Assembly (NCBI RefSeq): GCF_045037415.1
Contig: NZ_CP173438.1
Direction: 5' to 3' (one strand)
From: Escherichia coli
GTDB lineage: Bacteria; Pseudomonadota; Gammaproteobacteria; Enterobacterales; Enterobacteriaceae
DNA length: 64,000 bases
Shown: positions 54,001-57,000 of the stretch, piece after piece
Numbering within the stretch: the first letter of the stretch is position 1
Layout: every line of letters starts with the position of its first letter
Program-made: the position numbers

Positions 54001-57000
54001 TTTCTCGGTTATCAAACCAACGTCCTCTACTGGCTGGCCTGCTGGATCGGCAATATCGCCATGGTGGTCATTGGCGTAGGATATTTAAGTTACTTCTTCC
54101 CGATTCTGAAAGATCCATTGGTATTAACCATCACCTGCGTCGTGGTGCTGTGGATCTTCGTCCTGCTGAACATTGTCGGTCCGAAAATGATCACCCGCGT
54201 ACAGGCCGTTGCTACCGTGCTGGCGCTGATCCCCATCGTCGGGATTGCCGTATTTGGCTGGTTCTGGTTCCGTGGTGAAACCTATATGGCGGCATGGAAC
54301 GTCAGCGGCCTAGGCACCTTCGGTGCGATTCAAAGTACCCTTAACGTTACGCTGTGGTCGTTCATCGGTGTGGAAAGTGCCTCCGTTGCCGCAGGTGTGG
54401 TGAAAAACCCGAAACGCAACGTCCCTATCGCCACCATTGGCGGGGTATTGATTGCTGCCGTTTGCTATGTACTTTCTACCACCGCGATTATGGGGATGAT
54501 CCCTAATGCCGCACTGCGCGTTTCTGCTTCGCCATTCGGTGATGCCGCACGGATGGCGTTGGGTGACACCGCCGGGGCCATTGTTTCCTTCTGCGCAGCT
54601 GCGGGTTGCTTAGGTTCACTGGGCGGCTGGACGTTGCTGGCAGGTCAAACGGCGAAAGCCGCTGCCGATGACGGACTGTTCCCACCGATTTTTGCCCGTG
54701 TAAATAAAGCGGGCACGCCAGTGGCGGGGCTGATTATCGTCGGTATTTTGATGACCATCTTCCAGCTCAGTAGCATTTCGCCAAACGCGACCAAAGAATT
54801 CGGTCTGGTTTCTTCCGTGTCGGTCATCTTTACACTGGTGCCATATCTTTACACCTGTGCGGCGTTACTGCTGCTCGGCCACGGTCACTTTGGTAAAGCG
54901 CGCCCGGCATACCTGGCAGTTACTACCATTGCCTTCCTCTACTGCATCTGGGCCGTAGTAGGGTCCGGCGCGAAAGAGGTTATGTGGTCATTTGTCACTC
55001 TGATGGTAATCACCGCCATGTATGCGCTGAATTACAACCGGCTGCATAAAAACCCGTATCCCTTAGATGCACCAATAAGCAAAGATTAATTCCCCTTAAT
55101 CCAGCAAACATAAAAGCCAACCTTAAGAACTTAAGGTTGGCTTAATTTTGCTTTGCGAGCATATGCGCACTTTGTTCGATGGAAACACCGTGATGTTGAA
55201 GCGCCTACTAAAAAGACCCTCTTTGAATTTATTCTCCTGGTTATTACTTGCTACTTTTTATATCTCAGTCTGCCTGAATATCGCCTTTTTTAAACAGGTG
55301 CTACAGGTGTTACCGCTGGATTCACTGCATAACGTGCTGGTTTTCTTGTCGATGCCGGTCGTCGCATTCAGCGTGATTAATATTGTCCTGACACTAGGCT
55401 CTTTCTTATGGCTTAATCGTCCACTCGCCTGCCTGTTTATTCTGGTCGGTGCGGCTGCGCAATATTTCATCATGACCTATGGCATCGTCATCGACCGTTC
55501 AATGATCACCAATATCATTGATACTACGCCGGCGGAAAGTTATGCCCTGATGACGCCACGAATGTTATTAACGCTGGGGTTAAGTGGCGTATTAGCCGCG
55601 ATTATTGCCTGCTGGATCAAAATCAAACCCACCACCTCACGCCTGCGCAGCGTTCTTTTCCGCGGGGCCAACATCCTGATTTCTGTACTGCTGATTCTGC
55701 TGGTTGCCGCACTGTTCTACAAAGACTATGCCTCGCTGTTTCGCAACAACAAAGAACTGGTGAAATCCTTAAGCCCGTCCAACAGCATTGTTGCTAGCTG
55801 GTCGTGGTACTCTCACCAGCGGTCAGCCAACCTGCCACTGATACGCATTGGTGAAGATGCTCACCGCAACCCATTAATGCAAAATGGGAAACGTAAAAAC
55901 CTGACCATTTTGATCGTCGGAGAAACGTCGCGCGCAGAGAATTTCTCGCTGAATGGTTATCCACGCGAAACCAATCCTCGTCTGGCAAAAGATAACGTGG
56001 TCTATTTCCCTAATACCGCCTCTTGCGGCACGGCAACGGCAGTTTCAGTACCATGCATGTTCTCGGATATGCCGCGTGAGCACTACAAAGAAGAGCTGGC
56101 ACAGCACCAGGAAGGCGTGCTGGATATCATTCAGCGAGCGGGCATCAACGTGCTGTGGAATGACAACGATGGCGGCTGTAAAGGCGTTTGCGATCGCGTA
56201 CCTCACCAGAACGTCACCGCGCTGAACCTGCCTGGTCAGTGCATCAACGGCGAATGCTATGATGAAGTGCTGTTCCACGGGCTGGAAGATTACATCAATA
56301 ACCTGCAGGGTGATGGCGTGATTGTCTTACACACCATCGGCAGCCACGGCCCGACCTATTACAACCGCTATCCGCCGCAGTTCAGGAAATTTACCCCAAC
56401 CTGCGACACTAACGAGATCCAGACCTGTACCCAAGAGCAACTGGTGAACACTTACGACAACACGCTGGTTTACGTCGACTATATTGTTGATAAAGCGATT
56501 AATCTGCTGAAAGAACATCAGGATAAATTTACCACCAGCCTGGTTTATCTTTCTGACCACGGTGAATCGTTAGGTGAAAATGGCATCTATCTGCACGGTC
56601 TGCCTTATGCCATCGCCCCGGATAGCCAAAAACAGGTGCCGATGCTGCTGTGGCTATCGGAGGATTATCAAAAACGGTATCAGGTTGACCAGAACTGCCT
56701 GCAAAAACAGGCGCAAACGCAACACTATTCACAAGACAATTTATTCTCAACCTTATTGGGCCTGACTGGCGTTGAGACGAAGTATTACCAGGCTGCGGAT
56801 GATATTCTGCAAACTTGCAGGAGAGTGAGTGAATGAAAATTCTGATTGTTGAAGACGATACGCTGTTATTGCAGGGATTGATTCTGGCGGCGCAAACCGA
56901 AGGCTACGCGTGCGATGGCGTGAGCACCGCGCGGATGGCGGAACAAAGCCTTGAAGCCGGTCATTACAGCCTGGTGGTACTGGATTTAGGCTTACCCGAT

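Follow-up and report, generated by a model that had tools for sequence, protein, structure and literature searches.

A predicted terminator hairpin shares its sequence with the BasR box of the Escherichia coli eptA-basRS promoter

We analyzed the spacer between adiC and eptA in a 64-kb stretch of Escherichia coli DNA (64,000 nucleotides of contig NZ_CP173438.1, assembly GCF_045037415.1; hereafter, the window), where a long inverted repeat runs into the predicted binding site of BasR (PmrA) in front of the eptA-basR-basS operon. Genes around this spacer follow the order melR, adiA, adiY, adiC, eptA, basR and basS/pmrB on the plus strand, with pmrR and proP on the minus strand. The 1.1 kb surrounding the adiC-eptA junction is 100% identical to several complete genomes in which RefSeq annotates adiC and eptA. 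The spacer itself measures 103 nucleotides (nt; 55090-55192) and is identical in K-12 MG1655. Its features and the genes on either side are listed here by their position in the window.

53752-55089, plus strand: coding sequence of adiC (arginine:agmatine antiporter), with its TAA stop codon at 55087-55089; from the open reading frame list and the RefSeq annotation of identical genomes
55107-55115, plus strand: A-rich tract (AACATAAAA) 5' of the stem, which supplies the outer pairs of the 81-nt fold and the minus-strand match of the terminator scan
55114-55127, plus strand: left hairpin arm (AAGCCAACCTTAAG), whose outer part (55114-55121) lies outside every BasR hexamer
55122-55127, plus strand: H0, a PmrA-like hexamer (CTTAAG) in the left arm, 2 nt upstream of half-site 1
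55128-55129, plus strand: AA at the center of the palindrome; the physical loop, GAAC, is 55127-55130
55130-55143, plus strand: right hairpin arm (CTTAAGGTTGGCTT), found by repeat search, terminator scan and folding
55130-55146, plus strand: BasR/PmrA box CTTAAG-GTTGG-CTTAAT, comprising half-site 1 (55130-55135), the spacer GTTGG (55136-55140) and half-site 2 (55141-55146)
55142-55156, plus strand: T-rich tract (TTAATTTTGCTTTGC), a candidate terminator U-tail that also forms the end of half-site 2 and the 10 nt separating the box from the -10 hexamer
55157-55162, plus strand: putative -10 hexamer GAGCAT, placed by comparison and the conserved 10-nt spacing
55168-55170, plus strand: putative start of eptA-basRS transcription (the A at 55169), placed from the -10 hexamer and giving a 5' untranslated region of about 24 nt
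55193-56836, plus strand: eptA (phosphoethanolamine transferase), first gene of the eptA-basR-basS operon
56833-57501 and 57502-58602, plus strand: basR and basS/pmrB, encoding the box-binding regulator and its sensor kinase

Positions 55108-55156 have the sequence ACATAAAAGCCAACCTTAAG-AA-CTTAAGGTTGGCTTAATTTTGCTTTGC, which continues, in the longer spacer extract, as ...ACATAAAAGCCAACCTTAAG-AA-CTTAAGGTTGGCTTAATTTTGCTTTGCGAGCAT... Within it, two arms of 14 nt each, 100% complementary and separated by 2 nt, form a 30-base palindrome (55114-55143), longer than any other perfect spaced inverted repeat in the window. As RNA, the palindrome folds into a stem of 13 base pairs (bp), with five G-C pairs at its base and a 4-nt GAAC loop. 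Its folding free energy (dG) is -18.8 kcal/mol (z = -4.7), a value that none of 200 shuffled sequences equalled, and in an 81-nt context the fold reaches -23.2 kcal/mol (z = -5.2). The A-rich tract at 55107-55115 mirrors the T-rich tract downstream and can pair with it, as in bidirectional-looking terminators, and a terminator scan called the hairpin on both strands, with AATTTTGCTT as the plus-strand tail. The hairpin starts 24 nt past the adiC stop codon and is followed, after GGC, by an interrupted U-rich tract (UUAAUUUUGCUU; 8 U in 12 nt) that the scan accepted. We rejected the possibility that the hairpin is a repetitive extragenic palindromic (REP) element or another dispersed repeat because its sequence is single-copy, occurring at a median of one place per genome in 5411 E. 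coli genomes. An Rfam search of 54000-59500 (E <= 1) assigned the hairpin to no family, its sole match being STnc630 at 58571-58736 on the minus strand. Two further hairpin-like inverted repeats lie elsewhere in the window, one at 31825-31875 (24-nt arms, 88% complementary, 3-nt gap) and one at 20484-20509 (perfect 12-nt arms, 2-nt gap).

The BasR/PmrA box is one of two matches to YTTAAK-N5-YTTAAK in the window, where 0.14 were expected and no shuffle reached two. These are CTTAAGGTTGGCTTAAT at 55130-55146 on the plus strand and CTTAAGGTTCACTTAAT at 58712-58728 on the minus strand, upstream of pmrR. The eptA box fits exactly the published definition of a PmrA box, in which half-sites CTTAAG and XTTAAT stand 5 bp apart (PMC3973317). 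Previous work has identified eptA (pmrCAB) as a direct target of PmrA/BasR (PMC9396075, PMC10570014, PMC3531487), and the box of pmrCAB (eptA-basRS) is known, as is the autoregulation of the operon (PMC10570014, PMC3973317, PMC3531487, PMC9396075). At pbgP, ugd and pmrCAB, two XTTAAY hexamers overlap the -35 element (PMC10570014). We predict that phosphorylated BasR binds the box at 55130-55146. A first reading of this DNA, made from the sequence only, had proposed that the hairpin between adiC and eptA shares nucleotides with the CTTAAG-N5-CTTAAT box, the first half-site lying in the right arm of the stem. Mapping of the arms and the box across 55114-55146 bore out both points, and the overlap proved larger than proposed, since the right arm covers not only half-site 1 but also the 5-nt spacer and three bases at the start of half-site 2.

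We compared 47 eptA promoters and tabulated the -10 spacing and the T counts for 21 of them, from about ten genera. All 21 carry an nAnnAT hexamer exactly 10 nt past the box (for example GAGCAT, GAGGAT, CACGAT, CAGCAT and TACCAT), and the distance from this hexamer to the ATG is constant at 29-32 nt. The same 10-nt spacing is found in E. coli at arnB (TAAAAT), waaH (TAAAAC) and pmrR (CATACT). Placed in this way, the eptA start would lie near 55169, downstream of the hairpin, so that the hairpin would fold only in RNA from the upstream gene. An attenuator in the eptA leader was considered and dropped, the hairpin (55114-55143) being upstream of both the putative -10 hexamer (55157-55162) and the putative start (about 55169). 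Because TTAATTTTGCTTTGC would serve both as U-tail and as the spacer between the box and the -10 hexamer, a transcript with its 3' end there would terminate within the eptA promoter.

The sequence-only reading had also named the hairpin the adiC terminator. We collected 80 genomic adiC loci for comparison of the sequence downstream, and eptA directly follows adiC only in Escherichia, Salmonella and Citrobacter. The sequence 3' of adiC in the remaining genera is unrelated, and in some it contains ordinary GC-rich terminators. The candidate that the hairpin is an ancestral adiC terminator was ruled out by the unrelated sequence downstream of adiC in Kluyvera, Hafnia, Yersinia, Xenorhabdus and others. 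The hairpin is also present behind genes other than adiC. E. fergusonii lacks adiC and has an adiY orthologue (84% identity) upstream of eptA, with AAGCCAACCTTAAG-AT-CTTAAGGTTGGCTT intact; C. rodentium has fumB in this position and an intact 13-bp stem (-18.6 kcal/mol); and at the metagenomic locus L086, whose eptA is 77% identical, yjdF stands upstream and GCCAACCTTAAG-AA-CTTAAGGTTGGC is intact. The gene upstream of eptA is co-directional in every relative examined. By this distribution, the hairpin appears to be tied to the eptA promoter and not to adiC. The earlier name was apt insofar as the element is terminator-like and closely follows the adiC stop codon, but because the hairpin is kept with eptA under different upstream genes, it is better termed the eptA-basRS upstream boundary.

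The upstream junction of eptA-basRS is a point of rearrangement (L083, L086, L091, L084-L090), with adiC, adiY (adiC having been deleted), yjdF, fumB, or a cofD-like or efp-like gene as the neighbor, depending on the genus. Conserved sequence at the junction always starts at, or just before, H0.

A pattern scan of metagenomes returned 80 loci, most of them chance matches; 16 had an eptA homologue, and the 14 in which eptA adjoins the match were used alongside the genomes. In the lineage comprising Escherichia, Salmonella, Citrobacter and L086, 7-8 of the 12 nt after GGC are T. Pairing between the left flank and the box extends over 10-16 bp in Escherichia, many Citrobacter and L086, the exceptions being genomes with another hairpin upstream, and the complements contributed by the left flank in the Escherichia/Citrobacter lineage are CCAAC/GTTGG and then AGCC/GGCT. 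In Phytobacter, Yokenella, Kosakonia, Trabulsiella and related metagenomic contigs, the box reads CTTAAG-GTTGT-CTTAAA, only 2-5 of the 12 nt are T, and the extended stem is absent. Pairing in this second group spans 4-6 bp except in Yokenella, which has the strongest case, a weak 10-bp AU/GU pairing (-4.8 kcal/mol), and most of its members have a GC-rich hairpin of their own farther upstream, after the upstream gene. The extended stem and the T-rich tail are either both present or both missing.

The stem is eroded, down to about -3 kcal/mol, where a REP-like GC hairpin has entered the spacer (Salmonella, C. freundii complex). The hairpin of Salmonella enterica, where adiC stands upstream and the box is retained, is unstable (dG = -3.9 kcal/mol, z = -0.3). 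Among 33 spacers, which are not phylogenetically independent, the dG of the core and the dG of the upstream sequence were inversely related (Spearman -0.47, p = 0.006; Mann-Whitney p = 0.0007). In other genomes, for example C. gillenii, C. amalonaticus S646 and E. fergusonii, complementarity extends through the whole box and creates its mirror image on the minus strand. Inspection of the spacers revealed no conserved -10-like hexamer after the mirror box, which ruled out a divergent BasR promoter on the minus strand; the mirror box is therefore better explained as an extension of the stem against a constrained right arm.

At three metagenomic loci of the lineage that lacks the long stem (L121, L141 and L119, with eptA about 71% identical), a GC-rich hairpin after a cofD-like gene directly abuts H0. 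The AT-rich stretch H0-TT-half-site 1 could serve as the U-tail of that hairpin, which would constitute another overlap of terminator and box.

In 5323 of 5411 E. coli genomes, identity across the spacer is 99% or more; over the 1.1 kb around it (54600-55700, including the ends of adiC and eptA), identity is just 90-95% in 4415 of 5412. The eptA protein is unusually divergent among E. coli lineages (96% identity to K-12), and the eptA promoter is nearly fixed. Three of 5423 spacer matches sit on plasmid-typed records. In an alignment of 23 sequences, the box at 55130-55146 is nearly invariant, and the left arm is conserved in three genera beside upstream sequence that cannot be aligned. Most of the one-sided substitutions in the left arm replace C by U (10), giving G.U pairs that are valid only in plus-strand RNA. 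The only compensatory change, C-G to A-U, occurs in two C. youngae-type genomes. The central bases (55128-55129, alignment columns 31-32) alternate between AA and TT by lineage, with AT in E. fergusonii and GT in Trabulsiella. A switch between AA and TT is the expected product of inversion of the whole palindrome.

We favor, with somewhat better than even confidence, the explanation that the palindrome is an intrinsic terminator which insulates eptA-basRS and is built on the promoter's own palindromic hexamers. In duplex DNA, phosphorylated BasR on the 55130-55146 box would, in place of a -35 element, recruit polymerase for initiation near 55169. The arms would fold into the 13-bp hairpin in RNA transcribed from the upstream gene, and the U-rich tail would be the transcript of the promoter's box-to--10 spacer. 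Hairpin and tail together are predicted to release polymerase at about 55148-55153, inside the eptA promoter, and termination there would keep acid-induced adiC transcription out of the self-activating eptA-basRS operon. Since CTTAAG equals its own reverse complement, 5-6 bp form automatically between H0 and half-site 1. This pairing may have provided a ready nucleus, after which, in Escherichia and Citrobacter, the left flank would have become complementary to the constrained spacer of the box.

Several observations weigh against this explanation. The U-tract is broken up by AA and GC (UUAAUUUUGCUUUG) and the top of the stem is AU-rich, and for these reasons termination may be only partial. 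A search of supplementary data from two E. coli transcript-mapping studies (3'-end mapping and single-molecule real-time (SMRT)-Cappable-seq) found no adiC 3' end and no eptA start, neither gene being listed. Across the 23 aligned spacers, paired cells amounted to 88% compared with 87.2% in shuffles, and 88 of 500 shuffles did equally well; since the box freezes the right arm, this covariation does not reach significance. A strong stem is kept in C. sedlakii, C. gillenii and L086 despite a second hairpin upstream. The association of stem and tail may reflect few independent events, as the contrast is essentially one between two lineages. Finally, H0 is conserved where a stable stem is absent, so that part of the left arm is under a DNA-level constraint which the terminator model does not explain.

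The TTAA core of H0 (NTTAAK) is kept in 46 of the 47 eptA promoters. These include the lineage that lacks the stem, in which sequence conservation starts exactly at H0. H0 probably has a role at the DNA level, perhaps by offering BasR or the polymerase alpha subunit an additional contact. In a cryo-electron microscopy structure of the PmrA activation complex, the DNA-binding domains are displaced about 3 bp upstream of the box (PMC10570014). H0 was ruled out as a general feature of PmrA promoters, being missing at waaH and present at arnB and pmrR only in one-mismatch versions. We also dropped a likeness of TAAGAAC to the RcsB box, of which, by eye, only half the site matches and in which the center varies between AA and TT among species.

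Could the palindrome then be primarily a part of the promoter, with H0 as a third contact for BasR, in another register or orientation, or for the alpha subunit's C-terminal domain right upstream of the box, and the RNA hairpin incidental? The retention of H0 in lineages that lack the stem and have upstream hairpins of their own would be expected under this explanation, as would the fact that the element accompanies eptA whatever the upstream gene. Sequence upstream of the box could matter, given the upstream shift of the PmrA domains (PMC10570014), and the PmrA DNA-binding domain also binds hexamers at a non-canonical 4-bp spacing (PMC3973317). However, a DNA contact leaves unexplained the 4-10 bp of complementarity past H0 (CCAAC, AGCC; up to 16 bp in all), which is free of hexamers, as well as the co-occurrence of the stem extension with the T-rich tail and the decay of the stem where another upstream hairpin is present. 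The 8-bp center-to-center spacing of H0 and half-site 1 is out of helical phase with the 11-bp repeat of the box, and a perfect H0-like hexamer is lacking at waaH, arnB and pmrR. An extra role for H0 beside that of a terminator is quite plausible; as the sole explanation of the palindrome, a DNA-level role is weak, and we consider it unlikely that promoter function is primary and the hairpin incidental. A more elaborate version, which we regard as quite unlikely, would make the eptA-basRS promoter a three-hexamer site. H0 would contact BasR or the alpha subunit and tune the feedback, and in Escherichia and Citrobacter BasR on H0 and both half-sites would also act as a roadblock altering termination or read-through of the acid-induced upstream transcript; if so, the palindrome would integrate the adi and pmr acid responses. 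A link between the two systems had been suggested in the sequence-only reading, in which terminator folding and BasR binding use the same nucleotides and adi read-through could thereby be coupled to the accessibility of the pmr promoter. That the nucleotides are the same holds for the sequence but not for the molecules, because the stem forms in nascent RNA and BasR binds duplex DNA, and the two would therefore not compete directly. Under such coupling, bound BasR would act as a roadblock that alters adiC termination, or adiC transcription or read-through would alter BasR occupancy and the output of eptA-basRS, linking the two acid responses. The adi system and BasSR are both acid-responsive. 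Polymerase must cross the entire box before the predicted release point, which makes a BasR roadblock or the displacement of BasR conceivable, and the imperfect U-tract suggests a leaky terminator. Against coupling, the hairpin is retained behind genes unrelated to acid resistance (fumB, yjdF) and is apparently dispensable in Salmonella enterica, where adiC is upstream and the box is present without a stable hairpin. Our literature search found no report linking adiC and eptA transcription and none on the overlap of hairpin and box. The coupling proposed earlier is thus unsupported, and we judge it improbable.

Two further explanations were considered. The overlap might be a chance by-product of two adjacent palindromic hexamers with no function of its own, since self-complementary copies of CTTAAG pair automatically over 5-6 bp and the covariation is not significant. 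Yet pairing extends to 13-16 bp, the folding z-score is about -5 with no shuffle as stable, the left arm is conserved in three genera beside unalignable sequence, and conservation within E. coli is higher in the spacer than in the genes beside it; these data make a chance origin very improbable. Alternatively, the palindrome might extrude as a DNA cruciform under negative supercoiling and so control whether the BasR box is accessible. Extrusion of arms about 13 bp long is possible in supercoiled plasmids in vitro, and the perfect 14-nt arms and AT-rich center would suit such a structure. We find this scarcely credible, because the G.U-compatible substitutions in the left arm fit pairing in RNA and not in DNA, and because several lineages lose the stem yet keep the promoter.

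The insulating terminator that we favor can be compared with several known arrangements. At the pmrCAB promoter of Salmonella enterica and E. coli, the gene is the same, the same box overlaps the -35 position, and the operon is autoregulated. The papers examined on this promoter describe two hexamers, and neither H0 nor the overlapping hairpin is mentioned in them. Studies in Salmonella enterica would not have revealed the hairpin because it is degenerate there (dG = -3.9 kcal/mol). PmrA boxes have been verified experimentally in that species (PMC3973317), and the presence of the box without a stable hairpin indicates that the hairpin is probably not needed for activation. Within the operon, the eptA stop codon and the basR start codon share ATGA (56833-56836), and basS begins directly after the basR stop codon (57502), an arrangement consistent with translational coupling along the operon.

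Similar to intrinsic terminators between co-directional operons, the eptA element has a stem-loop with five basal G-C pairs, a stability of about -19 kcal/mol, an A-rich 5' flank and a U-rich tail. In contrast to the usual terminator, its 3' half is also an activator site and a promoter spacer, and for this reason its sequence is fixed by the promoter; AA and GC break its U-tract. Where spacers between co-directional genes are short, it is ordinary for an intrinsic terminator to abut or overlap the promoter that follows. REP or palindromic unit (PU) elements resemble the eptA palindrome in being intergenic and situated after a stop codon, and the same spacer holds REP-like GC hairpins in Salmonella and in several Citrobacter. 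Unlike these elements, the eptA palindrome is single-copy in each genome, has an AT-rich center and lacks the REP consensus.

The pmrR promoter on the minus strand (58712-58728) offers a comparison within the window. It has a perfect PmrA box (CTTAAGGTTCACTTAAT), 10 nt to CATACT and a co-directional upstream gene, proP. In contrast to eptA, no long hairpin spans the box, and H0 is represented only by a one-mismatch hexamer (ATTGAA). Hairpin and box are separate there: a REP-like, GC-rich palindrome (GGCCTGATGTGATGCTGTCTTATCAGGTC; about 58735-58775, minus strand) stands after the proP stop codon (58779) and ahead of the pmrR box. The pmrR coding sequence (58578-58667, minus strand) overlaps the convergent 3' end of basS by 25 nt, and the STnc630 match at 58571-58736 on the same strand scores 182 bits.

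What this analysis adds is the overlap itself, the membership of the hairpin in the eptA module, a comparative placement of the -10 hexamer, and the conserved H0. It is a tidy but ordinary case of sequence sharing, and the current view of BasR regulation is unchanged. For experimental work on this promoter, cutting at the box for a reporter fusion or a promoter swap also removes the upstream gene's putative terminator, and results from Salmonella do not address the hairpin, which is absent there. The arrangement illustrates how a palindromic regulator site may be recruited as half of a terminator stem. The eptA-basRS operon governs lipid A modification and resistance to polymyxin and colistin. 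Because the operon activates itself, stray transcription from upstream could trigger its feedback loop, and a terminator embedded in the promoter would be a simple safeguard.

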